A stretch of 64,000 bases of DNA from Patescibacteria group bacterium (GTDB taxonomy: Bacteria > Patescibacteriota > Minisyncoccia > Phycocordibacterales > UBA2100): the NCBI GenBank assembly GCA_021731295.1, contig JAKFXQ010000001.1, positions 1,636 through 65,635 of the forward strand, in the 5' to 3' direction. This document shows positions 9,772 to 62,285 of this stretch, in pieces; the first letter of the stretch is position 1, and every line of letters starts with the position of its first letter. A program made the position numbers and the translations under genes. Below the pieces are notes generated by a model. It did not search any database, had not been told where the DNA came from, and was given only the letters and a program-made list of their open reading frames with translations.

Positions 9772-9779
9772 GAACGCCG

Positions 9780-9959
9780 TTACGCAAGCAACGGTTGTTC
9801 GAGTTTCTGTGGCAAACCTTCAAGCTCCGCGTCAATTGCTCTGAATTCTGCGTAGAGTGCTTCGAGCGTTTTCGTCCCTTCTTCGCGAAGTGTCTGCGTA
9901 GCGCTTGCGACCTCGTCGGCCAGCGCTTCCATTTCCTTCAAATCGTTTTCGGTATCCAT
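9780..9959 (-). CDS. hypothetical small acidic protein (59 aa, MDTENDLKEMEALADEV...)
   Basis: Complete ATG..TAA ORF, just below the 60-aa track cutoff, 10 nt downstream of the coiled-coil gene on the same strand; predicted helical. Confidence 0.4.
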   Translation of the reverse strand: MDTENDLKEMEALADEVASATQTLREEGTKTLEALYAEFRAIDAELEGLPQKLEQPLLA

Positions 9960-9969
9960 ACGCTAGCTA

Positions 9970-12319: not shown

Positions 12320-12325
12320 CTGCGC

Positions 12326-12353
12326 ATTGTATCCACAGACCTGCCTTTGACAA
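12326..12353 (-). promoter_or_regulatory. sigma70-type promoter of mreB2 (TTGTCA-16-TACAAT), leaderless arrangement
   Basis: Minus strand reads ttgtcaaaggcaggtctgtggatacaatgcgcagGTG; near-consensus hexamers, start codon 6 nt after the -10. Confidence 0.55.
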
Positions 12354-12383
12354 ACAAACGGGGCGCCTCTTGGGCGCCCCGTG
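12349..12383 (-). terminator. rho-independent terminator downstream of purM
   Basis: Minus strand ACGGGGCGCC-caaga-GGCGCCCCGT followed by ttgtttgtc; the T-tail overlaps the mreB2 -35 box. Confidence 0.6.
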
Positions 12384-12424
12384 TCATTTGTGTGCACTCG
12401 TCAATATTTTCCGGCGGACGCGTG

Positions 12425-22258: not shown

Positions 22259-22373
22259 GTGACGACTCTTGACGTGGCGTCTCCTCTACGGCACAGGCTA
22301 GTAATTGCGTACCATCCGTGTAAGCATGCGGGCCGTCTCTCGTCTGCAGAGACATACCAACACGAACAACTTC

Positions 22374-44771: not shown

Positions 44772-46759
44772 CGCCTGCGGAGTGGATAGCACGCGGCGCA
44801 GAGGCCGAGGTCATCCATTTTCTGAATATATTCCACAACAGTAGTGACGAATTCTGCGTGGCTCCACACGAGTGGCGTAACGGATAGTGCCTCACCCGTG
44901 TATGGATTTACCTGCTCCGAGAGCATGCCGGAATCGGTCGCACGCTCGACCACCCACTCAAGGAGTCCGGTAATCTGGGCTAAATCGTCTGCCGTCTTCA
45001 CGCGAGAGAGGAGGTACTGCGCTTTCCACAGCGTGGTCACTGTCCACGGATTCGGCGCCGCGTCTTTCGACGTGCGGTAGTACATGTCGCCTTGGTTGCG
45101 CGGCATGCCACGAATCGTGCCTTCCTTTAGTTCGAGTTCGCGCGACATGGTCTCAAAGGACATCGCCAAGTGCGAATCATCCTTTGGTACTACACCAAAC
45201 TCATACACACCGTAGCTTGATGAAAAGTCGAGCGTGTAATCGTAGGTAAATTCTCCAGGACGCGAGCGGAACACGGCCTTCACGAACGCCTGCTTCGCGT
45301 CGCTCCAGAGCAATGAGGTAATGGCATCGCGCATTCGCTCGGCGGCGTTGCGATACCCCTCCGCGAGCTGGTGTTTCCCGAGCAAATCCGCAAAGTACTC
45401 GCCAACACGCAGTGCGCCATACGTCGTTGAGGCTGTATACGTAGAGACGCAATACACTTCCTCCCACAAATCGTAGCTCGGCTTCGGCAGGCCTGTTTCG
45501 TGATCCACGTGCGCTACCAAAAAGTCTGCACATCGCTTTATCAGCGAATTAAATACTCGCTCCACGAACTCGAGATCGCGCGTGACGTGATAGTACTCTT
45601 TCAGCACGACCAGGATGATTGCCGTCTCGTCTGCTTGCACGGGCAATTCCGTCGCGCCGTTTCGGTACCACGGATGCCACGAGGAACCGACAGAACCGTC
45701 CGCGAGGTACTTGTGCATGAAATACCCTTCCTTCGCCACTATCGAATCGCAGAACTCAAAGAAATTGCGTGCGCTTTCGAAATCACCCGCCAGAATGAGA
45801 GCCCGAATGGCGTAGGCTGCATCACGCGGCCAGACGTACGCATACGTGTCGCGCCCCTGATTCAAGATGCCCGTATCGCTCGCGGCGATGATGCCGCCAC
45901 GCTTGTCTGTATGTGCGCGAATGACAAGGAGTGAGCGCGTAAACATCTCCTGAATGCCGGTAGGAATTTTAGAGAGATTGATGCCTTGCCGTGTCAGCCA
46001 TGCGCGCCAGTAGTCACTGACGGTACCGAGCAAGTATTGTGGCGTTTTTGTGCGCACGTACTCATTCAAGTCTTGTATCGCTTCGAACGTCTCTCCCGCA
46101 CAAAGCCAGTAGTAGAAGGTGCGTGACTCGCCTGGTTGATAGTGCGCCTGAAGGCGCATCACCGAATCCACCTGTCCGTGTTCGATGCCGTTTTGTGACA
46201 ACACGCCGTCGTCCGCATCCCTGAATGTCCCCTCCTTCCCTTCAATACCGGAGAGGCCCACACTCCACTGGTCAAATGGCGCGCTCTCGTGCGATTCGGC
46301 TCGCATGAGGAACATACGCCGACCTTCATAGTGGACCAGTGCGTGCATGCGTGGATCATAGTACGCAGTATCGCCACGCGCCGTTTCTCCCACCTGGAAT
46401 TCATGCCCGAAGAACAATCCAATATCACGTGCATTTTTCGCATCGTTCGTGACAACGATTTCGCGCAGGAAAATATTCTGTTCATTATAGACGGCGTCCC
46501 GCACCGACAAGCGCACTCCCTTTCCAGAGAGCACACCCTCCGCGGTCCCCACCATCGTGTCGTGCATCATGGTCGTCGTCATCTGCCACGAATCGCTTTC
46601 GGTCCAATGCATAGCACCGTCAACGAACACGCCGATGCGGTGGGTGCGGCCGCTCACATGATTCTCACGACCGATGTACGGAAAATAGAGGTCGCGCATT
46701 TGCGCACGCGCATCCACGCCCACGAGGAGCGAGCCGTTCCCCAATGTATAGGACCTCAT
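44768..46759 (-). CDS. glycoside hydrolase family 15 (glucoamylase / glucodextranase / trehalase-like) with N-terminal beta-sandwich domain
   Basis: GIIAASDTGILNQGRDTYAYVWPRDAAYAIRAL (GH15 YxxxWxRD signature); 663 aa. Confidence 0.75.
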   Translation of the reverse strand: MRSYTLGNGSLLVGVDARAQMRDLYFPYIGRENHVSGRTHRIGVFVDGAMHWTESDSWQMTTTMMHDTMVGTAEGVLSGKGVRLSVRDAVYNEQNIFLREIVVTNDAKNARDIGLFFGHEFQVGETARGDTAYYDPRMHALVHYEGRRMFLMRAESHESAPFDQWSVGLSGIEGKEGTFRDADDGVLSQNGIEHGQVDSVMRLQAHYQPGESRTFYYWLCAGETFEAIQDLNEYVRTKTPQYLLGTVSDYWRAWLTRQGINLSKIPTGIQEMFTRSLLVIRAHTDKRGGIIAASDTGILNQGRDTYAYVWPRDAAYAIRALILAGDFESARNFFEFCDSIVAKEGYFMHKYLADGSVGSSWHPWYRNGATELPVQADETAIILVVLKEYYHVTRDLEFVERVFNSLIKRCADFLVAHVDHETGLPKPSYDLWEEVYCVSTYTASTTYGALRVGEYFADLLGKHQLAEGYRNAAERMRDAITSLLWSDAKQAFVKAVFRSRPGEFTYDYTLDFSSSYGVYEFGVVPKDDSHLAMSFETMSRELELKEGTIRGMPRNQGDMYYRTSKDAAPNPWTVTTLWKAQYLLSRVKTADDLAQITGLLEWVVERATDSGMLSEQVNPYTGEALSVTPLVWSHAEFVTTVVEYIQKMDDLGLCAACYPLRRR

Positions 46760-48087
46760 GCCTTCTTGCGCGCAGGTCGCGCAGGCGATTTCCCTTTCGC
46801 CGGTGCCAACAATTTCTTAGGAGGGGCGGCCGCCTTCGCTCGTGCGAGAAGTTTTGGTGGAGCTTTCGTTTTTACCGGAGCCTTCGTTGATGCTTTGGGC
46901 TTCTCGATGCGTAACATTAAGTCAGCCAGCGCGTTCCGATACGCAATGTAGGCATTGTAGGGAGACTCGTACGGATTGAAATAGGCATGAATATCTCCGT
47001 CGTTGAACCACTTCGTGCACATATAGTAGAAGTGGTCAGACGTCTGCAGCTTCCTCCAGTCCTCGATGATGGCATCGTCCTTGGTCGCCATGACCTGGTC
47101 TTCAATTGCGTAGACGTCTGCGAGCGCGGAGCGTTGCAAGTCATTGCCCATCCATGCGGAGAGATCACGATCAGTGTCTGCCCACGAGACGACATGTGGC
47201 ACGTCTACCACGCCGACCGGCTTATTGCGTTCAGCCGCCTCGGAGACCGTAACGAAATCCGTGTCCTTGTGCGCGAGAATGTGCTCTGGCAAGTGCCGAA
47301 CGAACTCGAAGATGCCGGTATCTGCCCACTTGTGCTCACCAAAGGTCTCGTAATCTAAAAAGAGGTTCACGACTTGCCCGTTGCCGTGATACGCGTGCAC
47401 CCAGTGCGCAAACTTATCCGCGGTCAACGGCCACCCGGCCCACGATGAATCGTGGAAGCGGAACGCGATGTCATCCGACAGTTTATAGTGCTTCATGAGA
47501 AGCGCTGTCTTTCCCTTCGGTGGACGATACACGTAGGTTGGCGCGCGCCAGCCGAGAATCGCATCCCATCCTTCAAGCAGCACTGCTTTGTAATTCTTTT
47601 TTGCTGCCCACTCAGCAAGCGAGTTTGTGTACGCGAGTTCGGTATTCCGCAGCGTCTTTGGGGTAACGCCGAAAATCTTCTTAATCTTGGCCGCGTGCAT
47701 TTCTACCTGTCGCTCGAACTCCGGCACTGAATAGAAGAACGCGAGGGAGTGATAGTACGTTTCTGCAACAATCTCAACGCGCCCCGTCTTTACCATTGCG
47801 CGATAAATATCTAAGACGTCCGGCGCCCATCGTTCCATTTGTTCTAACACCGTCCCTGTGAATGAGAACGAGAGCTTGAGTTCAGGATGGCGATGCAAGA
47901 GTTCGAGAAATAGTTCGCCTGCAGGGCGATAGCATTTGTTGGTTACCTTGCGCAGAACCCACTCGTTGTTCAGGTTTTCTTCGCCGGCGTGAGTGAAGTA
48001 GTCGTGACTGTGTCCGACGTCAAAGATGCGATACCTGCGCACGCGGTACGGCTGATGTACATGGAAATAGAGACACACTGAGAGCAT
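46756..48087 (-). CDS. glycoside hydrolase family 57 (alpha-amylase / branching-enzyme-like) with basic Ala/Pro/Lys C-terminal tail
   Basis: CLYFHVHQPYR...HAGEENLNNEW; about 440 aa; tail KAPVKTKAPPKLLARAKAAAPPKK. Confidence 0.7.
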   Translation of the reverse strand: MLSVCLYFHVHQPYRVRRYRIFDVGHSHDYFTHAGEENLNNEWVLRKVTNKCYRPAGELFLELLHRHPELKLSFSFTGTVLEQMERWAPDVLDIYRAMVKTGRVEIVAETYYHSLAFFYSVPEFERQVEMHAAKIKKIFGVTPKTLRNTELAYTNSLAEWAAKKNYKAVLLEGWDAILGWRAPTYVYRPPKGKTALLMKHYKLSDDIAFRFHDSSWAGWPLTADKFAHWVHAYHGNGQVVNLFLDYETFGEHKWADTGIFEFVRHLPEHILAHKDTDFVTVSEAAERNKPVGVVDVPHVVSWADTDRDLSAWMGNDLQRSALADVYAIEDQVMATKDDAIIEDWRKLQTSDHFYYMCTKWFNDGDIHAYFNPYESPYNAYIAYRNALADLMLRIEKPKASTKAPVKTKAPPKLLARAKAAAPPKKLLAPAKGKSPARPARKKA

Positions 48088-48093
48088 GAAAGA

Positions 48094-49287
48094 TCACGAG
48101 GAGGTGACACATGCAGTATATAGTGCAATACATCGTTTCGCCGAGATATCCCATGTGGATTGCAACGCCTCGTGCGCGCCGTTTTTACTCAACGTATCGT
48201 GAAGCGGCTTATACGCAGCAATGGAGAGCATGTACTGAGCAAGCAATTCTACATCCCAGAAATCTGCTACAAGCGCGCTCGGCAAAACTTCTTTCACGCC
48301 TGATTGCTTGGAGATGATCGTCGGAATTCCTTCTGCCGCTGCTTCAAGCGCGATGAGACCAAATGGTTCGGCGACCGACGGCATCACCAGCATGTCAGCG
48401 GCCTGCATGAGCGCGCGACGTTCTGCTCCGCGAGCGAATCCGGCAAAGAACACATGCTTCCCTAACCCGACACCGGCAGCGTGAAAAAGCAGTTGGCGTT
48501 CGAGTTCGCCCGCGCCCGCAAGAATGAATCTAAATCGCGGATTGTGTCTGATAACAATTTCTGCCGCACGCAAGAATATGTCGGGACCTTTATGCAGAGT
48601 CATACGTCCCATGTAGAGCGCGACCGCTCCCCTATCGGGCTTTACGGTAACGGGCACGAAATCTTCGTGCTCGCGCAACAGTCCATTATGGATGACATAA
48701 ATCTTTTCGCGCGGAACGTTGTACTTTGTTTCAAGAAGTTCGCGCACGCGGTGCGATATTGCAATGATGGCATCTGCGCCATCAAATGATTCCTTCTCTA
48801 TCGCGAATACGCGTTCGTCGAATCCCAGTGCCGCGCCCTGATCCACAGACGGAAGGTGCACGTGGAGAATCAAGGGCTTCCCCGTTGCCTTCTTTGCCGC
48901 GAGTCCTGCAGGGAACGCCAACCAGTCGTGCGCGTGAATGACATCGAATTTCTCGGTGAGTGCTATGTCTTCAGCGGCCTCCGCGTAGCGCAATACTTCT
49001 GAAAATAAATCATGCGCGAATCCACCCTGAATGCCCATGCGCATCTGTTCATACAATGTCGCCGTCATGTAGGGCGAGAGCAAAGAGTTGACGAAGCGTC
49101 CGCGAACACGCTCCTTGGGTGGGAAAATGACGTCGAGATGTTCATCGGGCACGTCTTGTGGACGCGGAAGAACGAAGGTCACCGAAACGCCCGCGTCTGC
49201 GAGAGCCTTCGTTAGTCCACGACAGGCGACTCCTAAACCGCCACTATTGTGCGGCGGAAACTCCCATCCAAACATGAGTACGCGCAT
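48094..49287 (-). CDS. GT-B glycosyltransferase (GT4/GT5, glycogen synthase-like)
   Basis: MRVLMFGWEFPPHNSGGLGVACRGL... N-terminal motif of archaeal-type glycogen synthases; C-terminal E-x7-E GT4-like region. Confidence 0.7.
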   Translation of the reverse strand: MRVLMFGWEFPPHNSGGLGVACRGLTKALADAGVSVTFVLPRPQDVPDEHLDVIFPPKERVRGRFVNSLLSPYMTATLYEQMRMGIQGGFAHDLFSEVLRYAEAAEDIALTEKFDVIHAHDWLAFPAGLAAKKATGKPLILHVHLPSVDQGAALGFDERVFAIEKESFDGADAIIAISHRVRELLETKYNVPREKIYVIHNGLLREHEDFVPVTVKPDRGAVALYMGRMTLHKGPDIFLRAAEIVIRHNPRFRFILAGAGELERQLLFHAAGVGLGKHVFFAGFARGAERRALMQAADMLVMPSVAEPFGLIALEAAAEGIPTIISKQSGVKEVLPSALVADFWDVELLAQYMLSIAAYKPLHDTLSKNGAHEALQSTWDISAKRCIALYTACVTSS

Positions 49288-49350
49288 GCGTTTTCAGTAT
49301 AGACTGCGCACCTAAGGATGTGGCCCTGCAAAGCCACAAAAGGGGGACAA

Positions 49351-50154
49351 CTAGCGCCCCCGCATGGCAAGCGCCCGACCACCTTCTAAACCGCCATTAT
49401 CTTTAAGAGAGGCCATGACCAGTTTCGGCATTGTGGCGAAGGGACTGATGCGCGCTGCGAGGTCCGCCTGCAGACGTTCAAGTGGAATAGGATTAATCCC
49501 GACAATCATCGAGCCCCCTATCACAATGGTATCCGGCGACCAGTGCACGCACGAGTTGTAGAGCCCGATGCTCAATATGTCAGCGAGTTTGGTACGCTCT
49601 TCAAGTGAGTCGAGATCCTTAGGATGAATGCCGAACTTCTTCTGCACGGCTTTTCCAGAAACTTGATCTTCCAGAGACTCAGTACCAACGAGCTGCTTGC
49701 CTGGGTGGAACCCGATGGCGGCCCTATCGATTCCGCCGTCCACGATGCGCGCCCCACCGACACCCGTGGAAACGGTGACATACATCATGATTGACGACCC
49801 CTGCCCTGCCCCGAAGGCGAACTCGCCTAACCCAACACACCCCGCATCGTTCACGATGGTGACAGGAGCGGATACAACTTTCTGCAGATGTTCTGCGGGC
49901 GATAGGCCGACCCACTGCGGAATATTGGGCATCTCGCGAATCCTCTCTCCGTCGAACTCCCCTGGCATGCAGCCTGCTATAGCATCTACCGTCCGGTCGC
50001 CCGCAAGTGTCTTCACGAGCTCCGAGAAGCGCGCCATGCCCTCGGCCGGATCTTGTGGCGTCGGAATTTTGCTTATATCTTCGAGACCATTCTCGCTCGC
50101 TCGCGCAACGCGCATGTTCGTACCTCCGATATCAAAAACAATGTAGGTGCTCAT
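49351..50154 (-). CDS. ROK-family sugar kinase (glucokinase-like)
   Basis: IVFDIGGTNMRVA... and GCVGLGEF ROK motifs. Confidence 0.7.
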   Translation of the reverse strand: MSTYIVFDIGGTNMRVARASENGLEDISKIPTPQDPAEGMARFSELVKTLAGDRTVDAIAGCMPGEFDGERIREMPNIPQWVGLSPAEHLQKVVSAPVTIVNDAGCVGLGEFAFGAGQGSSIMMYVTVSTGVGGARIVDGGIDRAAIGFHPGKQLVGTESLEDQVSGKAVQKKFGIHPKDLDSLEERTKLADILSIGLYNSCVHWSPDTIVIGGSMIVGINPIPLERLQADLAARISPFATMPKLVMASLKDNGGLEGGRALAMRGR

Positions 50155-50175
50155 ACGCGCCAGTATCGCACCGCG

Positions 50176-51168
50176 CTAGTCGGCGAACAAGACTTTCGCA
50201 AAGAGCCAGTGGTCAGGGTGGCCCTTTTCGCGCATGTAGTACCACCACTCCACGCCCCACAAGTATTGTTCTCTAAACGGCGTCTCTGCCGCATAGGCGA
50301 TTATTTCCTCCATCATTGGGACACTCATGCGCGAACGCTGCTCTAGGAGCGGCACGTCTTCTATGGGCGCTGCAAGCCACGGCTCGAGTGAGAGTTCGGA
50401 AAGAATGACGGGCTTCTGACCGTACAGAAGTCGCATCACCGTGCCTTTGACCGCATAGAGCGAGGACGGCAGCGCCGTGCGGAACATGCCGGTATCAGGT
50501 CTGTAGAAATAAATGTACAGACTGGTGCCGAAGACGTCGGCGAGTTGATACGGTTTGTACCAGAGGCCGAGATTGCCGCTGTCGGTAACCATGATTGGGC
50601 GCGAGTCGAGCGAACGAACTAGTGCGAGCTCTTCCTCAAAAAATGCCTCGTCTACCATATCTCCGCATGACTCGTCCGCAAAGACGGGGAGGAACACCTC
50701 GTTCTCTACCTGCCACATGGTGATGGTCGGATTGTCCTTGTATCGCTCGACGGTCGCCCGCACGATGTCGCGCAGCTGACTCTTCTGCTCTTCCCACGGA
50801 AGTTCGCGTGCCCACTGCGGAATATGACATTCGGGCCAGCGCGGAACACGCCTGCCTATCGCCAGGATGACACGGGCGTCGCGCGCACCCGCCTCGCGAA
50901 TAAGCTCGTCGAGTTCGCTCCAGTCATACGCGTCGCGCTCGCGTTCTATCTGGTCCCAGTACGCCACGAGACGAAACTTTCGGACACCAAGCTCATCGAG
51001 CGTTGCACGATACGCTGCCCGCCAATCAATACCAATTTCGCGTGCATAGGCCGGTGAGAATGTGACGCCGTATTCGCGTGTCGGAGGAATGTCGGCACGA
51101 GATAAAAAGAAGTACCCAAGTATGACGGAGCCAATGATGGTGGCGAGCGTAGCGAGAATGGCTTTCAT
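50176..51168 (-). CDS. TIM-barrel glycoside hydrolase (GH5/cellulase-superfamily-like), membrane-anchored
   Basis: N-terminal TM; TMWQVENEV (catalytic acid NE); trimmed from ORF 50176..51426 to MKAILATLA. Confidence 0.55.
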   Translation of the reverse strand: MKAILATLATIIGSVILGYFFLSRADIPPTREYGVTFSPAYAREIGIDWRAAYRATLDELGVRKFRLVAYWDQIERERDAYDWSELDELIREAGARDARVILAIGRRVPRWPECHIPQWARELPWEEQKSQLRDIVRATVERYKDNPTITMWQVENEVFLPVFADESCGDMVDEAFFEEELALVRSLDSRPIMVTDSGNLGLWYKPYQLADVFGTSLYIYFYRPDTGMFRTALPSSLYAVKGTVMRLLYGQKPVILSELSLEPWLAAPIEDVPLLEQRSRMSVPMMEEIIAYAAETPFREQYLWGVEWWYYMREKGHPDHWLFAKVLFAD

Positions 51169-52058
51169 GCAAACGTGTACGCGAGTGCCGCGAGGCCGAC
51201 GCAGATGAGCCCAATACCGACACCCGTATGCCAGCCACCATGCGTTAGTGAATCCTGTTTCATCCCGGGCATGTAGCGTGCAAACAGAATGGACATGATG
51301 AAGAGGAAGACGAACTGTAATCCGGTGAGCGCATTGACGAGAGCGACACTCCCCAGAGACACGGCAAATGAAAACAAGATACTCGCGGCGCCTGCTATCA
51401 CTTTGTTCCCCATCACGAGTGCCCATGCGCCACGCGTGGACTGTTTCGCGCTATGGAATATTTTCGCGCGCATCTGTGGAAGAAGGAGGAGCGAGAGGAC
51501 GAAGAGAACGCCCATCATGCGCATCCAGAAGAATGCGTCTATGAAGTCCGTTCGCTCAAAGACGAGCTTGGAGAGAAACACGGTCGAGCCAAACGCGACT
51601 CCCGCACAGATCGTGTAGAGGAGCGCACTGCGAGAGAAGTGGAAGTGCGAAATAATCGCCGTGCCGATTGCAAGGAGGAAGGCCGGTAGAATGAATCCTT
51701 CGACATCCGTGTGCAGAATGAGTGCCGAGAGGACAATGGTCGTCAGCGCAGAGATTCCTCCCACGGCAGGAGCAACATCTGAGGCGCGTGCGATTTTGAG
51801 TGCCGAGTAGAGCGTGAAAAGCGCGGTGAAAAATGCCATGCCGTTCATGAGCGCGATGCCAATGAGCGACCACGTGGGCCACGACACAAACCCAAAGGGT
51901 GCAAATCCCGCTACGACCGCAGAAAAGAGCACGGAGAAAAATGCGTAGGCCGCTGGCTCACCTATTGCACGCGCGCGGATGACAATATGCTTGTCAATGA
52001 GAATGGAGACCGCGTACAAGAACTGCGCGGCGAACGCGAGGAGAATCCAGAGCTCCAT
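51165..52058 (-). CDS. EamA/DMT-superfamily transporter (10 TM)
   Basis: Two EamA-like repeats of 5 TM helices. Confidence 0.65.
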   Translation of the reverse strand: MELWILLAFAAQFLYAVSILIDKHIVIRARAIGEPAAYAFFSVLFSAVVAGFAPFGFVSWPTWSLIGIALMNGMAFFTALFTLYSALKIARASDVAPAVGGISALTTIVLSALILHTDVEGFILPAFLLAIGTAIISHFHFSRSALLYTICAGVAFGSTVFLSKLVFERTDFIDAFFWMRMMGVLFVLSLLLLPQMRAKIFHSAKQSTRGAWALVMGNKVIAGAASILFSFAVSLGSVALVNALTGLQFVFLFIMSILFARYMPGMKQDSLTHGGWHTGVGIGLICVGLAALAYTFA

Positions 52059-52127
52059 CCGCGTATTCTACCGTGCTCAAAGCCCATACCCTTGGTGCAA
52101 CGCCCGAGACGGGTATAATCGCCCCAC

Positions 52128-52658
52128 ATGATAGTACTCGGCACTATCCTTCTCCTCCTTCCAGCAGCGGCCGCGAACATGGCGCCCGTCTTTTTTAGCC
52201 GCGCCACGTTTCTCTCTACCCCGCTCGATTTGGGAAGACACTACCGCAATAGACGTGTGTTCGGTGACAATAAGAAGGTGCGCGGGCTTGTCGTCGGAAT
52301 CTGTGCTGCCGTTCTCGTCGCCTGGATACAGGTTCTCGCGGCACCACTGTTCGCTGAATACGCGCTTATCGATTATGCCGCCGTGGACCCGATCCTCCTT
52401 GGGCTCCTTCTGGGGACGGGAGCACTCGTCGGTGACGCTATAGAGAGCTTTTTCAAGCGCCAGCGTGGCATTGCACCGGGAGAATCTTGGATGCCGTTTG
52501 ACCAGATTGATTGGATACTGGGTGCGTTCGTGTTTCTCACGCCACTGTACATGTTCTCCCCTGCCGTCTATTTCGCAGCACTCCTGATTGGCGGGTTACT
52601 CCATCCCGTCATCAATATCATCGGCTACCACATAGGACTCAAGCGCAAACGCCTCTAG
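52128..52658 (+). CDS. CarS-like (CDP-archaeol synthase / DUF46) CTP-transferase family membrane protein
   Basis: LPAAAANMAPVF N-terminal motif and GDAIESFFKRQRG (CDS/CarS signature GDxxESxxKR); about 5 TM, 176 aa. Confidence 0.5.
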   Translation: MIVLGTILLLLPAAAANMAPVFFSRATFLSTPLDLGRHYRNRRVFGDNKKVRGLVVGICAAVLVAWIQVLAAPLFAEYALIDYAAVDPILLGLLLGTGALVGDAIESFFKRQRGIAPGESWMPFDQIDWILGAFVFLTPLYMFSPAVYFAALLIGGLLHPVINIIGYHIGLKRKRL

Positions 52659-53869
52659 GTCGATTTCTCTTTGATTAGACGCGCGTAGTCATACGCACTT
52701 TGTCGAATGGTTCGTGTCTGCGTCGCGTAATCAATCGCGACAAGTCCGAAGCGCTTGTCGAATCCATGCGACCACTCGTAATTATCGAGAAGTGACCAGT
52801 ACATATAGCCGCGAAGGTCCGCGCCGCGCTCGCGCGCTCGCTCCATCGCATAGACGAGTTCACGAATATACGAGGCACGATTCACATCTTTCTCGTCTGC
52901 AATCCCCGCTTCACTCACGTAGAGCGGCTTGCCGTAGCGCTTCAGCATTACTAATGCCTCTTCGATGCCCTCGGGATAAATGTCCCAGTTCATGTCGGTT
53001 TTCGAGTACTGACGCGTGTCGCCAAACTTTTTGTGGAGGTAGTAATTGACTCCGATAGAGTCGCACTGCTTCGCGACGCGCGACATAAAGTAGTGCGTCC
53101 AATGCCAATTGAGAACGGCCGCAAGAACGCGATGCTTGAGCCTTCCATCGTCATGGAAGAGGATAACTTGGTGCACAAGCCCAACGTCGAGAGAGGGCTG
53201 TGCCCGTTTCATCTCGCGATACGCCGCATTGTGCGCAGCGATGAGATTTTTTATGACACGAAAATACAGATAGATATTCCGGAAACTGGTGTCTTTCTTC
53301 ATATCCGGCATAGAACCAGGAACTCCGGAGAGCGCCATTTCTATCCCAGGCCAACTTTTGAATGGCGCCCACGTGCCGCGCCGCCACCCATTCGAAGAAA
53401 ACGGCATCGCCTCGTTCATCGTCGCAAAGTGTGCGCATAAGTCACCAAGTTCGCGCGCGACGTGGCCGCAGTAGCGAGCGAAGATTTCGGGTGCATCCTT
53501 TCGTTCGAAGCCACCCGTCCGTGCAAACCACAGCGGTAAGGTGAAGTGCCAGACCGTGACGAAAGGCTCAAGCCCCCGCGCACGCAGTGCCATCAAGACC
53601 TTGCGGTAGTGTTCGATTTCTTTAGCGTCAAACTTTCCTTCTTCGGGTTCGATACGCGCCCATTCAACAGACAGGCGATGACAATTGTGCCCGAGCGATT
53701 TGGCGATATCGAAATCACTTTCGTAGCGCGCGTAGTGCTCGCACGCAGCACCACAGACCGGCACGCGTCCTTCTCGTGCCGCTTCCGCCCAATCACAATT
53801 CTCAATGCCGCCTTCTACTTGATAGCTCGCTGTTGCGGCGCCCCAGAAGAAACCCTTCGGGAATGACAT
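52655..53869 (-). CDS. GH1 beta-glucosidase
   Basis: MSFPKGFFWGAATASYQVEGG..., TVWHFTLP, YVSEAGI (ENG-type nucleophile region). Start trimmed to M7 of ORF. Confidence 0.85.
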   Translation of the reverse strand: MSFPKGFFWGAATASYQVEGGIENCDWAEAAREGRVPVCGAACEHYARYESDFDIAKSLGHNCHRLSVEWARIEPEEGKFDAKEIEHYRKVLMALRARGLEPFVTVWHFTLPLWFARTGGFERKDAPEIFARYCGHVARELGDLCAHFATMNEAMPFSSNGWRRGTWAPFKSWPGIEMALSGVPGSMPDMKKDTSFRNIYLYFRVIKNLIAAHNAAYREMKRAQPSLDVGLVHQVILFHDDGRLKHRVLAAVLNWHWTHYFMSRVAKQCDSIGVNYYLHKKFGDTRQYSKTDMNWDIYPEGIEEALVMLKRYGKPLYVSEAGIADEKDVNRASYIRELVYAMERARERGADLRGYMYWSLLDNYEWSHGFDKRFGLVAIDYATQTRTIRQSAYDYARLIKEKST

Positions 53870-53950
53870 CACGCTAGTATACGGCATTGCGCAGACCAGT
53901 TTGTCGCGCTATACGTACGGATGGCTAGGAGGCAGCAGAAAGGGAGCGCC

Positions 53951-54173: not shown

Positions 54174-55178
54174 ATGCGCATTCTCTTTGATGCTGTCGAA
54201 ACGGACGAGCAAAACTTTTACCGTAGCGAATTACCCGAACATGAACTCACGTTTCTCGACACGCCACTCACTGCCGTGCGAGATGAATTGCAAAATGCTG
54301 ACATTCTCTCAGTGTTCGTCTCTTCCTCGGTCACGCCAGAGATGATTGCGGCAATGCCGACCGTTAAGGCGATTGCGACGCGCTCCATGGGGTTTGATCA
54401 CATAGACAAGGCGGCGTGTAAGGAGCGTGGCATAACACTTACCTACGTACCCTCCTATGGGACGCGTACGGTCGCCGAGTTCGCATTCTCGCTCATCCTC
54501 GCACTTTCACGAAAGGCGTACGCTGCGTATGACCGCCTACGCACCGACGGCACAACCGACGTGAAAGACTTTGAGGGATTCGACCTTGCGGGAAAAACCA
54601 TCGGCGTCGTGGGCACCGGCAAGATTGGCAAGAACATGGCTCGCATTGCGCGCGGCTTCGACATGAAGGTAGAAATTTGCGACAGTTTCCCAGACGAATC
54701 ATTCGCAAAGGAGATTGGAAGCACGTATTGCTCGCTTGAGGAACTTGTTGCCGCAAGCGACATCATCTCCATTCACGTACCTTTGATGCCTCAGACGCAG
54801 CATCTCTTTAACGCCGACATTCTCGCGAAGTGCAAACCCGGAGCCTACCTCATCAACACATCACGCGGCGGCGTGGTGGATACCAAGGCGCTCGTTGATG
54901 CGCTCAAGCGCGGACACCTCGCTGGCGCAGGACTCGATGTTATAGAAGGCGAACGTGCACTCATGGACGAAACATCACTCCTCTCCGAATCGCACCAGGA
55001 CGTGAACGAGTTCCAAGAGCTCGTCGCGGCACACGCACTCCTCGACATGCCAAACGTAATTCTCACACCGCACATCGCGTTCAATACGAAAGAAGCAAAG
55101 CGTGAGATTGCGACGGTCACGGTCGCGAACATACAGGCAGCTATTGCGGGCACGCCACAGAATACCGTCGCACTATGA
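54174..55178 (+). CDS. D-isomer-specific 2-hydroxyacid dehydrogenase (glycerate dehydrogenase / hydroxypyruvate reductase / D-LDH family)
   Basis: GKTIGVVGTGKIGKNMARIARGFDMKV NAD-binding motif; catalytic R/E/H region ...TPHIAFNT. Confidence 0.8.
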   Translation: MRILFDAVETDEQNFYRSELPEHELTFLDTPLTAVRDELQNADILSVFVSSSVTPEMIAAMPTVKAIATRSMGFDHIDKAACKERGITLTYVPSYGTRTVAEFAFSLILALSRKAYAAYDRLRTDGTTDVKDFEGFDLAGKTIGVVGTGKIGKNMARIARGFDMKVEICDSFPDESFAKEIGSTYCSLEELVAASDIISIHVPLMPQTQHLFNADILAKCKPGAYLINTSRGGVVDTKALVDALKRGHLAGAGLDVIEGERALMDETSLLSESHQDVNEFQELVAAHALLDMPNVILTPHIAFNTKEAKREIATVTVANIQAAIAGTPQNTVAL

Positions 55179-56464
55179 GTATCGTGCAGAACGCAGAGGA
55201 ACTCGGCCGTACCGAGGGACGGCGAACGATGCTGCGCATCATAGAATCTGGACTGCGCGGAATCGATACCGACCACGTTGTGCGTTCAAGCGTGCACATA
55301 GACGGGACCGTACTCACGATTCGCCCGACGCACAGTCTCTCGCACCCAGACGCACACACCTACGACCTCGCCCATTTCGAACACGTCTACATTGTCGGCT
55401 GCGGCAAAGTGGCGTGCACAGCCGCCGCAACACTTGAGTCCATCCTAGGTCATCGCGTGAAAGACGGCGCGGTCGTTGGACTTTCAGACAACATTTGTGA
55501 AATCGTTTCCACCTACAAAGGTTCACACCCGCTTCCGTCGACACAAAATTTTCGCGCGAGCGAGCACATGAAGGAGATTGGGGCACAGATTACGGATAAG
55601 GACTTGGTCATCGCAGTCATTTCAGGCGGTGGTTCCGCAATGCTCTGTTCCAGCGCGGGCGAGTGCGACCAAGGAGCACGTCTGTATGATGCATTTCTTC
55701 CAACGGGAGGCACTATCGACGAACTCAACGTCGTGCGCCGCCACATCTCCGACCTGAAAGGAGGTGGGCTGGCCAAGGCGCTCTATCCAGCAACGGTGGT
55801 AGGCCTCATCTTTTCCGACGTTCCGGGCGGGAACCCGGAAACGGTCGCATCAGGCCCGACGTATCGTGATACAACAACCACCGAGGATGCACAGCGCATC
55901 ATCGCAAAGTACTCGCTCGGTGAGTATGCGCTGACCGAGACACCAAAAGAGGAGCGGTACTTTGAGAAAGTGACGAATGTCCTTCTCGCCAGCAACGAGA
56001 CAGCGCTCCATTCCATGGCACATGCAGCGCGCGAACTGGGCTTTCACGCGATTCTGCCGCAGTGTGACCCGTACAGCACACCTGATGCACTGGTCAGCTG
56101 CATGCTCGGCGCGTCGCAACCGCACGCAGTGGTGTTAGTTGGCGGAGAGCCACGACTCGCCGTTCCCGCAGTCGGCTCTGGCGACGGTGGACGCTGTAGC
56201 TATACGGCCCTCGCTGCGCTCGAAACACTCTCTGGACATCACGTCTTCGCGGCCCTCGCTTCTGATGGTCACGACAACAGTGTCCATGCGGGCGCTTTCG
56301 CCGATTCGCTCACACTCACCCGCGCGCACGAGCTGGGAATTACTCCAAACATGTACCGCCCATCACTCACTTCGAACGCCTTCTTCGCACAGACGCATGA
56401 CCTTATTGATACGGGCCCACTCGAATCGAATGTCTCCGATTTATTCGTCCTTCTGAGTGTATGA
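55175..56464 (+). CDS. glycerate 2-kinase (MOFRL family)
   Basis: MOFRL-type N-terminal block, VIAVISGGGSAML and LKGGGLAKA motifs; ATGA overlap with upstream gene. Confidence 0.75.
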   Translation: MSIVQNAEELGRTEGRRTMLRIIESGLRGIDTDHVVRSSVHIDGTVLTIRPTHSLSHPDAHTYDLAHFEHVYIVGCGKVACTAAATLESILGHRVKDGAVVGLSDNICEIVSTYKGSHPLPSTQNFRASEHMKEIGAQITDKDLVIAVISGGGSAMLCSSAGECDQGARLYDAFLPTGGTIDELNVVRRHISDLKGGGLAKALYPATVVGLIFSDVPGGNPETVASGPTYRDTTTTEDAQRIIAKYSLGEYALTETPKEERYFEKVTNVLLASNETALHSMAHAARELGFHAILPQCDPYSTPDALVSCMLGASQPHAVVLVGGEPRLAVPAVGSGDGGRCSYTALAALETLSGHHVFAALASDGHDNSVHAGAFADSLTLTRAHELGITPNMYRPSLTSNAFFAQTHDLIDTGPLESNVSDLFVLLSV

Positions 56465-57675
56465 ACGGCATCACCGCAATTCATGCTGAACGTATCCGCG
56501 ACTCACGCGGGAAGGCAACGCTGCGCATTATCGTTGAAGCTGGAGACGCACGCGGTGCGTTTGACGTGCCCAGCGGCGCATCCACCGGTTCGCGTGAAGC
56601 GCACGAACTCCGCGATGACGATGGCGGCGTTACCCGAGCCGTACATGCTGTCGAATCCGAGATTGCCCCCGCGCTCAGTGGCACCGACGTTACCAAACAA
56701 CGTGCACTCGATGAGCTTCTGATTTCGCTCGACGGCACGCCTCGCAAGGAGCGCCTGGGCGGTAATGCGCTCATCGGCGTCTCCATCGCCGCGGCGCGGG
56801 CCGCCGCCTCCTCACTACACATTTCCCTGGTCGCACACCTGCGATCGCTTGCGTCCATGATGCCATCGCGCGAGACACCGCGCCTTTTTGTTAATCTCAT
56901 TAACGGCGGCAAGCACGCCGAGGGCGGCTCCCCTATCCAGGAGCACCAGATTGTCACCGAAACGGATAACATCGCCCAAGCACTCCAGCAAGCAGAGCAG
57001 GTTGAGCGCGTTCTCGGAGACATACTTGAAGCTCGTGGCATTCTTGCGCGTCGCGGAGACGAAGGAGGCTACGCATTCTCCGTGAATTCCATAGACGAAC
57101 CGTTCGCGCTCCTCGGTGAAGCGGTGCGCACGTGTAATATCCCGGGACTCTCCCTTGGAGCTGACGCGGCCGCCTCGTCTTTTTTCAACGATGGCGCATA
57201 CCACGTTCTCGGCGAGTCGTACGATACGGCGGCACTGAGCGCGCACTATCGCTCACTGCATGAGACGCATGGACTCATCTTCCTTGAAGATCCATTTCAC
57301 GAAGACGCAGTACCAGACTTCGCTGCACTCAAAACGGCACAACCAGCATTCATTCTTATTGGCGATGACCTCACGACAACGAACGCGGAGAGTATTCGTG
57401 CAGCCGCGAAGCAGCATGCCATCCAGGCCGTCATCATTAAACCGAATCAAATCGGCACGCTCACGGAAACCATCGAAGCAATGAAAGTAGCGCGCGAGAA
57501 CAGCGTTCACTGCATCGTTTCCCATCGTTCTGGCGAAACACACGACGACTTCATTGCAGATGTAGCGTACGCCTTTGGCGCGTATGGACTGAAGGCAGGG
57601 GCCCCGTCTGCGCCTGAACGTAAGGTAAAATATGAACGTCTCGTCGAGATTTCTCATGATAGAGCGCACACATGA
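56461..57675 (+). CDS. eno: enolase (phosphopyruvate hydratase)
   Basis: VPSGASTGSREAHELRDDD, SHRSGET, KPNQIGTLTE enolase signatures; overlaps glycerate kinase stop by 4 nt. Confidence 0.9.
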   Translation: MNGITAIHAERIRDSRGKATLRIIVEAGDARGAFDVPSGASTGSREAHELRDDDGGVTRAVHAVESEIAPALSGTDVTKQRALDELLISLDGTPRKERLGGNALIGVSIAAARAAASSLHISLVAHLRSLASMMPSRETPRLFVNLINGGKHAEGGSPIQEHQIVTETDNIAQALQQAEQVERVLGDILEARGILARRGDEGGYAFSVNSIDEPFALLGEAVRTCNIPGLSLGADAAASSFFNDGAYHVLGESYDTAALSAHYRSLHETHGLIFLEDPFHEDAVPDFAALKTAQPAFILIGDDLTTTNAESIRAAAKQHAIQAVIIKPNQIGTLTETIEAMKVARENSVHCIVSHRSGETHDDFIADVAYAFGAYGLKAGAPSAPERKVKYERLVEISHDRAHT

Positions 57676-58462
57676 CCGTTCGGATACACAGCTCATAGCA
57701 ACCATTGGGCCAGCATCTGGTGCACGCGAAAAAATTCGCATGATGCTGGATGCGGGTATGGACGTCGCGCGCCTCAACGGTGCGTGGGGCGACCATGAGC
57801 AGTATGAAAGCTTCATCGCGCCACTGCGTGCAGAAGCGCAGGCACTGAGACGAAACATACCCATCATCCTCGATCTTCCTGGGCCGCGCGTGCAAGAAGG
57901 ACAGGAACATCACGCTGGCACGGGACCACTCCTCACCGAACGAGACTGCGAGCACATCGCCTTCGGCGTGAAGCACGCGATCGAGTACTTCGCACAATCC
58001 TACGTAGGACGCGCGGAAGACGTGGAGCGACTCCGCGAAGAAATCACACGACACGGGGGGCGTGCGAAAATTATTGCAAAAATTGAACGTAAGGAAGCAC
58101 TCCAAGATATACAGGCAATCGTCCGAGTCGCTGACGCTATCATGATTGCGCGCGGCGATTTGGGGAACGAAATTCCACTAGAAACCATTCCGTTTGTGCA
58201 AGCAGACCTCATCAAGGCAGCGCGACGCGGCAAACGCCCCGTTATAGTGGCCACTGAAATGCTTTCGTCCATGGTTGACCAGGACCGTCCCTCGCGCGCG
58301 GATGTGACGGATATCGTCACTGCCGTCATGCAGGGAGCGGATGCCGTTATGCTCTCAAACGAAACAGCGACGGGTCAGTTCCCTATCGAGTCGGTTGATG
58401 CCATGGAAAAAACGCTGCTCGAAGCAGAGAAGCACATTGCGATTACCCGCAGACTCCTCTAG
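57656..58462 (+). CDS. pyk: pyruvate kinase, short form lacking the C-terminal allosteric domain
   Basis: LIATIGPAS, MIARGDLG, KRPVIVATEMLSSM, RPSRADVTDIVTAV; 268 aa; overlaps eno by 20 nt. Confidence 0.75.
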   Translation: MIERTHDRSDTQLIATIGPASGAREKIRMMLDAGMDVARLNGAWGDHEQYESFIAPLRAEAQALRRNIPIILDLPGPRVQEGQEHHAGTGPLLTERDCEHIAFGVKHAIEYFAQSYVGRAEDVERLREEITRHGGRAKIIAKIERKEALQDIQAIVRVADAIMIARGDLGNEIPLETIPFVQADLIKAARRGKRPVIVATEMLSSMVDQDRPSRADVTDIVTAVMQGADAVMLSNETATGQFPIESVDAMEKTLLEAEKHIAITRRLL

Positions 58463-59046
58463 TCAACGACGGGCAGTCCGCCAAAATCTTCAGTCCGGAT
58501 TTCTGCGTAGAGCGGATTCTTCTTCAGCGCGGGCTTTCCCTCATGCTCGACTACGTAGTACGCGAATCCGCGCATCTTTTTCACCATTTCGTAATCCGCG
58601 TGTCCGGGCATCGAAACCGGATCTTTGTCACCGAAATCAACCGGTGAGTCATCGGCAGTAACGAAGTACGTTTTCCCCACGTTTACCACAAGGTGGCCAT
58701 GCCCCGGTGCCATGTATACACTGTCACCCGCTTTCACCTGAATCGCCTTAAAGAGTTCGAGCTTTTCTGGAACCGACGCACCTCCCTCTTCAACCATTTT
58801 CTGAATGAGCGCAACGCCGTCACCGTGTAAGACCCAGTATGTCTCGTCCAACTGCCCAATGTGATAGTGACCGTACGTTTTTATGTATTCACCCGCAACG
58901 GTGCCCGGTTCCCAAACGGTAATGTTCCGCACGTCCTTCCCACCACGAATCATGTAGTAGTGCGTGTCGGGACCGTTCGCTGCCGGGTCCATCAACACAT
59001 CCTTCATCTTTTCGTGCGTTCGCACCGCTAAGTGTTCAACAGTCAT
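58459..59046 (-). CDS. cupin-type glucose-6-phosphate isomerase (archaeal-type cPGI)
   Basis: TYGHYHIGQLDETYWVLHG and VYMAPGHGHLVVNVG parallel Pyrococcus cPGI TKGHFH...EVY and VYVPPYWAHRTVNIG. Trimmed to MTVEHLAV. Confidence 0.65.
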   Translation of the reverse strand: MTVEHLAVRTHEKMKDVLMDPAANGPDTHYYMIRGGKDVRNITVWEPGTVAGEYIKTYGHYHIGQLDETYWVLHGDGVALIQKMVEEGGASVPEKLELFKAIQVKAGDSVYMAPGHGHLVVNVGKTYFVTADDSPVDFGDKDPVSMPGHADYEMVKKMRGFAYYVVEHEGKPALKKNPLYAEIRTEDFGGLPVVD

Positions 59047-60380: not shown

Positions 60381-62285
60381 CTACGCTCCTGGATTCGGCG
60401 TCACATTTTCTGCCCAGTCGGCGGCAGTATCCGTGTCCACAAGTGTCGTACGCGCAGTTGAACTGCCCGCAGGCATGATGGCGACGGATGGGTCAAACGC
60501 ACTTACGTCTGTCCCCCAACTCACGGAATCCACGAGTGCCGCCTCTGTGTTGCGAAGCTCAACGCGATCACCTATATTGCCGAGACCATTGCTGCCTATC
60601 GAGTTCCCAATCACATAGACCATCGTTCCTTCTGGGAATGTCCAGAAATCATCGGTCGTCGAAGTCGCCGTGACAATCATGTATTGCCCTGCAGCGAGCA
60701 CCGTTCCTTCTGTGAAGACGTCAGAGTTGGCCGCGTCATGAATGGCGTAGCCCGAGAGGTCGATGTCTGCATCGGTACCGTTGTGGATTTCGACCCACTC
60801 ATTACCAGGCTCTTCCCCCTGTCCTTCGCCGAGGTCATAGATAACTTCAGTGATAAGCAGGTCTCCCGGCACTGGTTCATCTGCCGGAGGAGTAAGAACA
60901 GTATCTATGACGTGAATGACACCGTTACTTGCTTCAATGTCGGTCACGATAATTTCGGCATCATTCACGAAGACACCATCCTCGTTTACCGTAATATCTA
61001 CCGTCTCACCAAGGAGTGTCGTCAGCATATCGGCAAGTACCACATTTGCCGCCATGAGTTTTCCGGAGACGACGTGATACAAGAGCACGTCTGTGAGTGC
61101 GGGAATGTCAGCGAGCAGTGCCGCAAGCACTCCTTCCGGTAACGCAGCGAATGCGTCATCAGTTGGAGCGAAGACCGTAAATGGTCCCGTGCCAGCTAGA
61201 TCATCGTCAAGACCTGCGGCGATAACCGCTGCCTCAAGCGTGTCGAACCTATCATCCGCGACGACAAGGGCCGTTATCGTCTGCAGGACTGGCTCTTCGG
61301 GAGCGATATCGTTGTTCGAAATCGTACAGATTTCCGTCTCGCCGTTACTTACCACAACATCCGCGCAGTTTTCATAACTCACCGCATATCCGTCCGCTGC
61401 TGTTTCAACAACGGAGTACGTGCCAGCATCTACCGACACGTCATTCTGTCCATCTTCCTCAAACGCAGTGGCCGAACCGCCGTTCACGCTGAACGAGAAA
61501 TCGCTCGCCATTGCATCGCCCTCGTCGTCGTTCACGACTACTTTCACGACACGCAGGGTACCCGGTTGGTCATCATTGGTTATCGTGCACGTTTTATTTT
61601 CGCCCAAAGCCACGGTGACTGTGCCGTCTGCGGCGCAGTCCCCTCCCCAGGTTCCGGCGGTATATCCCGCAATGTTAACCTCGCTTACCGTATGTGCGCC
61701 TACCGAGACAGTGTGCGCAACACTCCAAGACACGTTTACGTCGTCAATCTTTGCCTGGAACGCAGCGGCTGATGCGGCGCCACCGTCATCATTGACGACT
61801 GTCTTTGTGAGCGTGATGGTCGGCTGTGGAACCGGCTCATTGACCGTGACCGTAACGGATTTCGTCACGCTTCCTCCCGGGCCCGTGCATTCAAGTGCAT
61901 AGGTACTAGTTTCTTCCGGTGTCACTACTTGGTTGCCATCTGCTGTTTTTACGCCACTCCAATCGTTTGCTGCAGTGCACGACGTCGCATCAGTCGAATC
62001 CCACGTCAACGTGGATGACTCACCCTCCGTAATCGTCATCGGGCTCGCGCTGAACGTCAGCGTTGGTTCTTCTGGCGGTGGCGGCGGATTACAAATATCG
62101 GGATTGATAATCGGTTGCATCAGGCGGGCGCCAAGTCTGTCTTGTCGCTCACATAAACGTTCTACGATATCGGTGCCTGACCTATCTCCTCTCGCGTCGG
62201 CGAATAATGGAAGCATGCTCGCAAGAACGAGCAGACTTATGGTGAGCACGGTCCCCCGACGCGCTCCGAAACGTATATTGCCCAT
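60381..62285 (-). CDS. secreted protein with fasciclin (FAS1) domain, beta-sandwich repeats and C-terminal lamin-tail domain (LTD)
   Basis: [11 protein letters not shown]...LLYHVVSG...[11 protein letters not shown] (FAS1); C-terminal LLITEVIYD...[19 protein letters not shown] (LTD). Confidence 0.65.

Follow-up and report, generated by a model that had tools for sequence, protein, structure and literature searches.

We analysed a window of 64,000 nucleotides from a Patescibacteria group bacterium (contig JAKFXQ010000001.1; the window is this whole stretch of DNA, and positions are numbered within it unless a related locus is named), which contains an operon of four overlapping plus-strand genes for a 2-hydroxyacid dehydrogenase (2HADH), a glycerate kinase, an enolase and a short pyruvate kinase (PK). 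A gene for a cupin-type phosphoglucose isomerase (cPGI) converges on the operon. The operon is real and conserved and is made of known enzymes; what is unusual about it is a family of PKs consisting of the A domain only, the occurrence of multi-enzyme fusions, and the exchange of a kinase for a mutase. We lean towards reading it as a conserved Patescibacteria operon in which lower glycolysis is supplied from glycerate and probably ends in D-lactate, with the cPGI gene as a separate unit. The five genes are as follows.

54174..55178, plus strand: NADH-type D-2-hydroxyacid dehydrogenase of LDHD/X9 (D-lactate dehydrogenase) type, 334 aa (Pfam, structure matches, determinants)
55175..56464, plus strand: class II (MOFRL) glycerate 2-kinase, 429 aa (DUF4147 and MOFRL)
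56461..57675, plus strand: enolase, 404 aa (Enolase_N and Enolase_C, TIGR01060)
57656..58462, plus strand: minimal pyruvate kinase, A-domain barrel only, 268 aa (PK barrel match)
58459..59046, minus strand: cupin-type phosphoglucose isomerase, 195 aa with ATG 59046 as start (PF06560)

Natural fusions and conserved gene order

The strongest evidence that the kinase, enolase and PK serve one pathway comes from natural fusions. In locus L043 (L and P numbers are our labels for loci and proteins) a single continuous open reading frame (ORF) at 3281-5749 encodes an 822 aa kinase::enolase, and in L050 the 1092 aa protein P0383 (2279-5557) is a kinase::enolase::PK in the same order as window genes 2-4, with a separate dehydrogenase gene overlapping its start. 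Further fusions are kinase::PK (P0376), PK::enolase (P0374), PK::mutase (P0375) and mutase::PK (P0028/P0372). The dehydrogenase is in none of them. Together with the gene families, the kinase, enolase and PK fusions support the core route that the first-pass annotation, made from the letters alone, had proposed, namely glycerate to 2-phosphoglycerate (2-PG) to phosphoenolpyruvate (PEP) to pyruvate. As nature has joined these three enzymes in single proteins, a physically coupled mode of working is probable; that such coupling makes up for the missing lid of the PK (see below) is speculative.

Eight further loci with unrelated flanks (L005, L032/33, L043, L044, L045, L047 and L050) have dehydrogenase, kinase and enolase genes in this order, at 44-61% identity where measured. 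PK follows enolase in six of these (L005, L032/33, L043, L047 and L050), and the L044 contig ends within the enolase. In L045 the PK slot, after dehydrogenase, kinase and enolase, is taken by a 796 aa PEP synthase (8452-10842; PPDK_N, PEP-utilizers and PEP-utilizers_C), which argues that the fourth step is the interconversion of PEP and pyruvate. The closest homologues of all the operon proteins are from metagenomic contigs, with source names that include Kaiserbacteria, Nomurabacteria, Pacebacteria, Taylorbacteria, Campbellbacteria, Minisyncoccia and 'Patescibacteria group'. From these names we infer a host lineage within the Parcubacteria/Paceibacteria, with Kaiserbacteria and Nomurabacteria as the closest named relatives.

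The kinase has the class II domain architecture, with DUF4147 (PF13660, 2e-55) and MOFRL (PF05161, 7.8e-17), and matches the solved structures of Thermotoga maritima TM1585 (2b8n, 1.6e-40) and Pyrococcus horikoshii PH0495 (1x3l, 7.2e-37). It falls under the NCBIfam glycerate 2-kinase cut-offs (153.5 against 550 and 122.5 against 670), which belong to lineage-specific archaeal models of Thermoproteus and Thermoplasma type. In all characterised MOFRL kinases 2-PG is the sole product, and 'hydroxypyruvate reductase' as a label for the MOFRL family is an old error (PMC2063504). The fusion to enolase in L043 and P0383 likewise argues for 2-PG, and the window kinase is predicted to phosphorylate D-glycerate to this product. 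The enolase passes the equivalog cut-off of TIGR01060 (330.2 against 300). Its best solved relative is the Methanocaldococcus jannaschii enzyme 2pa6 (2.5e-76), against which the motifs SGASTG, GDEGG, EDP, GDDL, KPNQIGT, SHRSGET and KxGAP are all kept.

In related genomes with the same minimal PK (~51% identity), the genes are instead arranged as dehydrogenase, phosphoglycerate mutase, PK and then enolase. The mutase slot holds a cofactor-independent mutase (iPGM) in L001 and L002 and a His_Phos_1 mutase in L003, L004, L006, L031, L034 and L051. The window kinase occupies this slot of the 2-PG-forming enzyme, which fits the report that phosphoglycerate mutase (PGM) is absent from several shallow Parcubacteria clades (PMC7304191). 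The dehydrogenase of the mutase-type operons is GHRB-type, with the archaeal glyoxylate reductase 2dbq as its best solved relative (5.9e-87), and is not an orthologue of the window dehydrogenase. As judged by tblastn, the pairing was perfect in the sample, with mutase and GHRB-type dehydrogenase in 7 loci and kinase and LDHD-type dehydrogenase in 7 (the dehydrogenases of L050 and L051 are untyped). This split probably reflects two ancestral states rather than independent events, and hence the pairing is weak evidence of a functional link. The notion of a 'constant' dehydrogenase beside either mutase or kinase as proof of a pyruvate substrate was discarded, as alignment and tblastn show that the GHRB-type and LDHD-type enzymes are non-orthologous.

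The layout given in the first-pass annotation was confirmed. All five ORFs are present at the coordinates listed above, Pfam and NCBIfam searches of each agree with its gene families at family level, and its three overlaps were each read in the sequence: ATGA at 55175-55178 between dehydrogenase and kinase, ATGA at 56461-56464 between kinase and enolase, and 20 nt between enolase and PK, where the PK ATG lies at 57656 and the enolase stop at 57673-57675. An alternative in-frame PK ATG at 57632 is preceded by 'taaggt' and would lengthen the overlap to 44 nt; the start at 57656 is favoured because the 100% identical database copy P0001 is 268 aa long and because of where the homologues have their N-termini. 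The dehydrogenase ORF opens at 54150, the start taken in the public copy P0249 (342 aa), but a start at 54174 (MRILFD) fits better since homologues begin MRI(L/V)FD. The cPGI ORF opens at 59115 (218 aa) and has an internal ATG at 59046, and public copies are 195 or 177 aa long. At the far end of the operon the PK stop (TAG, 58460-62) and the minus-strand cPGI stop (58459-61) overlap in the palindrome CTAG, so that there is no intergenic room for a terminator between the two genes. A scan for promoters and terminators found one promoter-like site where 2.6 were expected, and terminator-like sites only within genes.

A minimal pyruvate kinase

The PK barrel is recognised by PF00224 (2e-69; 234.7 against a cut-off of 30), and the protein scores just under the curated cut-off of TIGR01064 (296.1 against 306.4). 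It aligns to the PK of Geobacillus stearothermophilus (2e28) in two blocks, with residues 18-89 matching 4-75 and residues 99-268 matching 169-339 (numbering of the 276 aa ORF), and residues 76-168 of the latter have no counterpart. In alignment with Escherichia coli PykF, both the B domain or lid (~75-165) and the C domain (~345-470) lack a counterpart; PF02887, the PK C-terminal domain, gave no match in the window PK, which stops near the equivalent of PykF residue 345. The B domain of ~90 residues is reduced to a linker of ~12 residues (roughly 79-92) with a near-invariant histidine (His85 in the numbering of the 268 aa protein), and the loss of the C domain amounts to ~125 residues. The enzyme had initially been described as a short form without the C-terminal regulatory domain. 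The C-domain loss is borne out, but the description is incomplete, as the B domain is gone as well and this is the rarer trait. To our knowledge, every characterised PK closes its nucleotide cleft with a mobile B domain. A full-text literature search that did not cover most subscription journals returned no description of a natural B-domain-less PK, or of a PK in the Candidate Phyla Radiation (CPR)/Patescibacteria.

In an AlphaFold2 model of the PK (predicted local distance difference test, pLDDT, 95.1; predicted template modelling score, pTM, 0.92) the linker forms a short beta-hairpin on an otherwise complete barrel. Foldseek aligned this model to PK A domains, including that of 7qdn, with template modelling (TM) scores of 0.88-0.92, and the A domain is 36-40% identical to PK structures. 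Residues R39, N41, D73, K142, E144, D168, T200, S234 and E236 are invariant in 39 homologues at ~50% identity. They align to rabbit R72, N74, D112, K269, E271, D295, T327, S361 and E363, which serve PEP binding, metal binding and phosphoryl transfer. This invariance shows the minimal PK family to be under purifying selection, and with such an active site the enzyme would be expected to transfer the phosphate of PEP to ADP.

The short architecture is shared by the family. Among the best 120 matches in a 90%-clustered database, 115 are 198-284 aa long and the other 5 are mutase::PK fusions. About 20 of the best 150 clusters at 50% identity gave one contiguous PK match, without the B-domain gap. 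In all loci examined, the minimal PK occurs together with enolase, mutase or kinase genes, by linkage or by fusion. An AlphaFold2 model of a mutase::PK fusion was built from only 5 sequences and has a pTM of 0.56, at which the domain arrangement is unreliable.

A neighbour-joining tree was made on A-domain columns and rooted on a canonical kinase; a midpoint root fell inside the long-branched minimal kinases. In this tree the 22 kinases without B and C domains group together to the exclusion of all others, and the canonical kinases nearest to them have Leu113 and Lys/Arg117 (rabbit numbering, here and below). The minimal kinases themselves have Leu at 113 in 21/23 and Arg at 117 in 22/23. Leu113 together with a positive residue at 117 is described as the mark of K+-independent PKs, the positive side chain standing in for the cation (PMC4284704, PMC8835810, PMC4374775). 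Changes specific to the minimal kinases are His77 to Trp (19/23) and Arg119 to Gln (17/22). One 377 aa protein, P0515, is a PK that lacks the B domain and retains PK_C; it lies outside the minimal-kinase clade and may be an independent lid loss, or an artefact. A link to DPANN archaea, raised by the label 'Candidatus Nanoarchaeia archaeon' on the minimal kinase P0118, was rejected: its contig L051 has a bacterial-style secE-nusG pair and a CPR mutase-type operon, and the archaeal label probably stems from a mistake in binning or taxonomy.

The dehydrogenase, energetics and competing explanations

The dehydrogenase matches 2-Hacid_dh_C (1.4e-58) and 2-Hacid_dh (6.8e-30). The NCBIfam models for PGDH, glyoxylate reductase, VanH and D-lactate dehydrogenase (D-LDH) all gave 140-210 bits and none reached its cut-off, the D-LDH models PRK08605 and PRK12480 scoring 167.6 against 356 and 143 against 579. 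Solved D-LDHs were matched over the full length (3kb6, 4.9e-63; 5z20, 3.8e-61; also 4zgs and 5z21); matches to structures of glyoxylate/hydroxypyruvate reductases and glycerate dehydrogenases had values of 1e-46 to 1e-37 and aligned only to about residue 261-265. In an alignment with E. coli LdhA, GhrA, GhrB and SerA (sequences from NC_000913) the catalytic R231/E260/H300 are invariant. The motifs 'VFV' (Phe51 equivalent), 'VPSY' and 'HIAF' match 'IFV', 'VPAY' and 'HQAF' of LdhA, whereas GhrA, GhrB and SerA differ. Furthermore, the window enzyme shares with LdhA a long E260-H300 loop and the Asp in 'CDSF' associated with NADH preference, both of which are absent from GhrA, GhrB and SerA. The marks of glyoxylate/hydroxypyruvate reductases (full-length similarity, a short loop before the catalytic His and an 'H-I-G-S/A' motif) were not found in it.

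In the 2HADH classification, Phe51 in the beta3-alpha3 loop, a Tyr at beta5-alphaA and a Phe/Tyr at betaG-alpha5 are, like the long loop and the Asp, determinants of LDHD, a subfamily whose enzymes usually prefer pyruvate; 3kb6 (Aquifex aq_727), whose crystal contains lactate, is placed in X9, the sister group of LDHD (PMC6303947). The JGI label for the window family is D-lactate dehydrogenase, and lactate dehydrogenase is reported to be common in CPR genomes (PMC5220378). Orthologues at 53-61% identity stand beside kinase-enolase-PK (L047), alone (L046, a Kaiserbacteria contig, and L048) or beside a PGM_PMM gene (L049), and their presence away from the kinase is as expected of a general terminal dehydrogenase. 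The enzyme had been called a glycerate dehydrogenase/hydroxypyruvate reductase in the first-pass annotation; structure matches and determinants make it LDHD/X9-type instead, close to the D-lactate dehydrogenase without glycerate activity that the same annotation had named as telling against its own assignment, though some action on hydroxypyruvate may still occur. Subfamily determinants, D-LDH relatives and genomic context point to a place for the dehydrogenase at the end of the route, and we judge it about an even call that it acts after PK, with pyruvate and NADH giving D-lactate.

In the proposed route the MOFRL class II kinase would convert D-glycerate to 2-PG with the expenditure of one ATP and the enolase would convert 2-PG to PEP. 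The minimal PK, which carries the K+-independent signature of Leu113 and a positive residue at 117, would then form pyruvate from PEP and ADP with the gain of one ATP. The LDHD/X9-type dehydrogenase encoded by the first gene would most likely reduce pyruvate to D-lactate with re-oxidation of NADH. By the stoichiometry of EC 2.7.1.165, 4.2.1.11, 2.7.1.40 and 1.1.1.28, glycerate kinase costs one ATP and PK yields one. Hence the conversion of glycerate to pyruvate gains no net ATP, and the module delivers pyruvate and/or an electron sink but not energy in itself. The original description of the operon as a self-contained route to ATP fails on this count. A lactate end-point would also consume one NADH. 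The classical coupled assay for glycerate 2-kinase brings together the same four activities, employing enolase, pyruvate kinase and lactate dehydrogenase (PMC2063504).

Several points weigh against the reading that glycerate feeds a lower glycolysis ending in lactate. At zero net ATP a lactate end-point needs another source of NADH and ATP, and none was seen in the window. Group X9, with 3kb6 as the best structural relative of the dehydrogenase, is biochemically uncharacterised and two characterised LDHD members accept hydroxypyruvate (PMC6303947), and in every kinase-containing locus the dehydrogenase gene is directly upstream of the kinase gene, an arrangement that fits conversion of hydroxypyruvate to glycerate too. 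Several of the fusions are known from single metagenomic contigs, and where genes overlap by 4 nt a one-base error could make a fusion. Finally, canonical PKs hold the nucleotide in a cleft between the A and B domains, with B-domain residues touching it, and full activity of a lidless PK is therefore not assured.

The position of the dehydrogenase gene, often overlapping the kinase gene, and the hydroxypyruvate activity of the two LDHD enzymes are what one would expect if the dehydrogenase acted first, as a hydroxypyruvate reductase/D-glycerate dehydrogenase. Hydroxypyruvate (e.g. from serine transamination) would then pass through glycerate, 2-PG and PEP to pyruvate, in a sequence that would resemble the Thermotoga serine-degradation route or steps of the serine cycle, and class II kinases have classically been tied to hydroxypyruvate/glycerate pathways (PMC2063504). 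This order, the one put forward in the first-pass annotation, is the main rival to the preferred reading, but we regard it as unlikely. The Phe/Tyr/Phe determinants of LDHD/X9 type are thought to limit the pocket to pyruvate-sized substrates, close orthologues of the dehydrogenase occur without a kinase nearby, and in related genomes the true GHRB-type reductases belong to mutase-type and not to kinase-type operons. The window showed no aminotransferase and no other gene whose product would form hydroxypyruvate. A bypass of the mutase, in which 3-phosphoglycerate (3-PG) from upper glycolysis or a RuBisCO-type salvage pathway loses its phosphate to give glycerate and the kinase adds one back at C2, bears on where the glycerate comes from and would be compatible with either role of the dehydrogenase. 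It draws on the presence of a kinase in the slot that sister lineages fill, between dehydrogenase and PK/enolase, with an iPGM or His_Phos_1 mutase, and on the reported lack of PGM in several shallow Parcubacteria clades. Moreover, neither the scanned window ORFs nor tblastn of the relatives' mutases against the window revealed a mutase, but the window is 64 kb of a genome and a mutase may lie elsewhere. Such a bypass would cost one ATP per triose, no 3-PG phosphatase was identified, and the kinase/mutase split may come down to just two ancestral events; we consider the bypass very unlikely.

We hold it to be very unlikely that the 268 aa PK is not a working ADP-dependent kinase but a decayed remnant, or a PEP-using enzyme with another acceptor or role. 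The missing B-domain side of the nucleotide cleft, the replacement of the rabbit R119 and H77 equivalents by Gln and Trp in most minimal kinases, and the score below the TIGR01064 cut-off would all fit such a protein. They are set against the purifying selection on the PEP, metal and phosphoryl-transfer residues, the size and monophyly of the family, its unfailing association with enolase, mutase or kinase genes, whether linked or fused, and the PEP synthase that stands in for PK in L045.

Beyond the preferred reading of a glycerate-fed operon that probably ends in D-lactate, a wider picture can be drawn, which we offer tentatively and with more doubt than belief. In one branch of the Patescibacteria lower glycolysis may have been re-plumbed, with the kinase (and a D-LDH-type dehydrogenase) taking the position of the mutase (and a GHRB-type dehydrogenase) so that glycerate and not 3-PG is the point of entry. 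The lidless, unregulated and K+-independent PK would then work in a channelled kinase-enolase-PK assembly in which its partners replace the B domain, and the fusions would be a fossil trace of this state.

The isomerase, the surroundings and comparison with known systems

The convergent gene on the opposite strand belongs, as the first pass had it, to the cupin-type phosphoglucose isomerases (PF06560, 3.1e-18; 66.1 against a cut-off of 20.7). His83, His85, Glu91 and His141 (numbering of the 218 aa ORF) fall on the four metal ligands of 1j3p and 4luk (P. furiosus His88, His90, Glu97 and His136); all four are thus present on alignment, and family membership stands. The 'GHxDY' phosphate-site motif (His/Tyr) is kept as well against the structures from Thermococcus litoralis and Pyrococcus furiosus. 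The protein has 3053 homologues. Identity is 68-100% for the best 120 and 70-89% across many CPR lineages, and nearly all source names given for these 120 are CPR (Kaiserbacteria, Roizmanbacteria, Magasanikbacteria, Minisyncoccia). Similarity to the Thermococcales enzymes is only distant (phmmer 2.8e-07). PF06560 isomerases occur across the CPR as a sister clade to archaeal sequences (PMC7304191), and an ancient inter-domain transfer is possible. The suggestion that the gene is sporadic in bacteria and was acquired laterally finds no support as a recent event, given its conservation across the CPR, its absence within 6-8 kb of the operon in every relative examined, and a guanine plus cytosine content (0.50-0.58) that is flat over the whole window, so that composition gives no sign of a foreign region. 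The cPGI gene is a separate, CPR-wide glycolytic gene that happens to adjoin the operon here.

Directly upstream of the operon, at 43021-53887, is a carbohydrate neighbourhood with two GH15-like genes, a beta-lactamase-fold gene, GH57, a GT4/GT5-like glycosyltransferase, a short ROK kinase (267 aa), a GH5/42-like hydrolase, an EamA transporter and GH1, no member of which adjoins the operon in relatives. A CarS-like cytidylyltransferase also lies here (52128-52658, plus strand); it matches PF01864, the CDP-archaeol synthase family, at 1.3e-28 and scores 126.8 against a cut-off of 148 for NF003114, and represents an archaeal-type lipid enzyme family inside a bacterial genome. The rest of the window encodes a penicillin-binding protein, MreC, a class II tRNA synthetase, ribosome recycling factor (RRF), deformylase, formyltransferase and a pilin-like gene. 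Two full-length MreB paralogues (3993-5117 and 11309-12397, minus strand; 434 and 430 bits) have MreC and the penicillin-binding protein near them.

Large surface proteins are predicted on the minus strand in the region of 37498-40203, 60381-62285 and 32669-33406, one of HYR/Ig-like/PG_binding and one of fasciclin/lamin-tail/SpaA-like composition, and a small minus-strand ORF listed with them has weak cohesin/dockerin matches. Four long ORFs (9970-11226, 22305-23801, 23851-24876 and 30452-31681; 341-498 aa) have no Pfam match at E <= 1e-4. The only Rfam matches in the window are three tRNAs. GAPDH, PGK and TPI were, like the mutase, not among the window ORFs scanned, and glyoxylate carboligase, tartronate-semialdehyde reductase and 2-keto-3-deoxygluconate (KDG) aldolase were not found in these 64 kb.

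A conserved natural PK family of ~265 residues without lid or allosteric domain would show how little of the enzyme suffices for catalysis, and raises the question of how phosphoryl transfer is shielded when the lid is missing. PK has been reported in only about one third of CPR genomes (PMC7304191). As the window PK lies under the TIGR01064 cut-off, threshold-based surveys may miss or under-count PK in these genomes. The PK and mutase gaps in CPR surveys may thus partly be architecture-driven misses and kinase-for-mutase substitution, which would change metabolic reconstructions of these symbionts. The fusion proteins are ready constructs for tests of substrate channelling.

With regard to known systems, the operon is like the class II kinase pathways of T. 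maritima (TM1585) and of the non-phosphorylative Entner-Doudoroff branch in Thermoproteus/Picrophilus in that a MOFRL kinase passes glycerate as 2-PG to enolase and PK, and like the gcl-hyi-TSAR-GKII-pyk cluster of Pseudomonas fluorescens in that the kinase gene is clustered with a pyruvate kinase gene (PMC2063504). Unlike these, it has a D-LDH-type partner dehydrogenase, an enolase gene inside the operon and a minimal PK, and in some of its relatives kinase, enolase and PK are fused. The mutase-type CPR operons share the minimal PK family and the layout of dehydrogenase, 2-PG-forming enzyme and then PK and enolase, but differ in having a mutase for the kinase, a non-orthologous GHRB-type dehydrogenase and the PK gene ahead of enolase. 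The dehydrogenase resembles LDHD/X9 enzymes (E. coli LdhA, Pseudomonas aeruginosa 5z20 and 3kb6) in full-length alignment, catalytic triad, Phe51/Tyr/Phe, long loop and the Asp for NADH, although it is only 34% identical to E. coli LdhA and heads an operon with a glycerate kinase. The cPGI shares with the Thermococcales enzymes (P. furiosus; T. litoralis 1j3p) the PF06560 cupin signature, the metal ligands and the phosphate-site His/Tyr, whereas overall similarity is distant and the window protein belongs to a large, highly conserved CPR clade.

Canonical PKs such as PykF and 2e28 have the same A-domain barrel, and every A-domain catalytic residue is found in the window PK, but the latter lacks the B lid, the C domain, the allosteric site and the C-C tetramer interface. 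It has the Leu113 and positive residue 117 of the K+-independent PKs (Leu113/Lys117), with Arg rather than Lys in its family. The human liver PK of 7qdn, from which the B domain has been deleted, is artificial and retains its C domain, whereas the window PK is natural and has neither.

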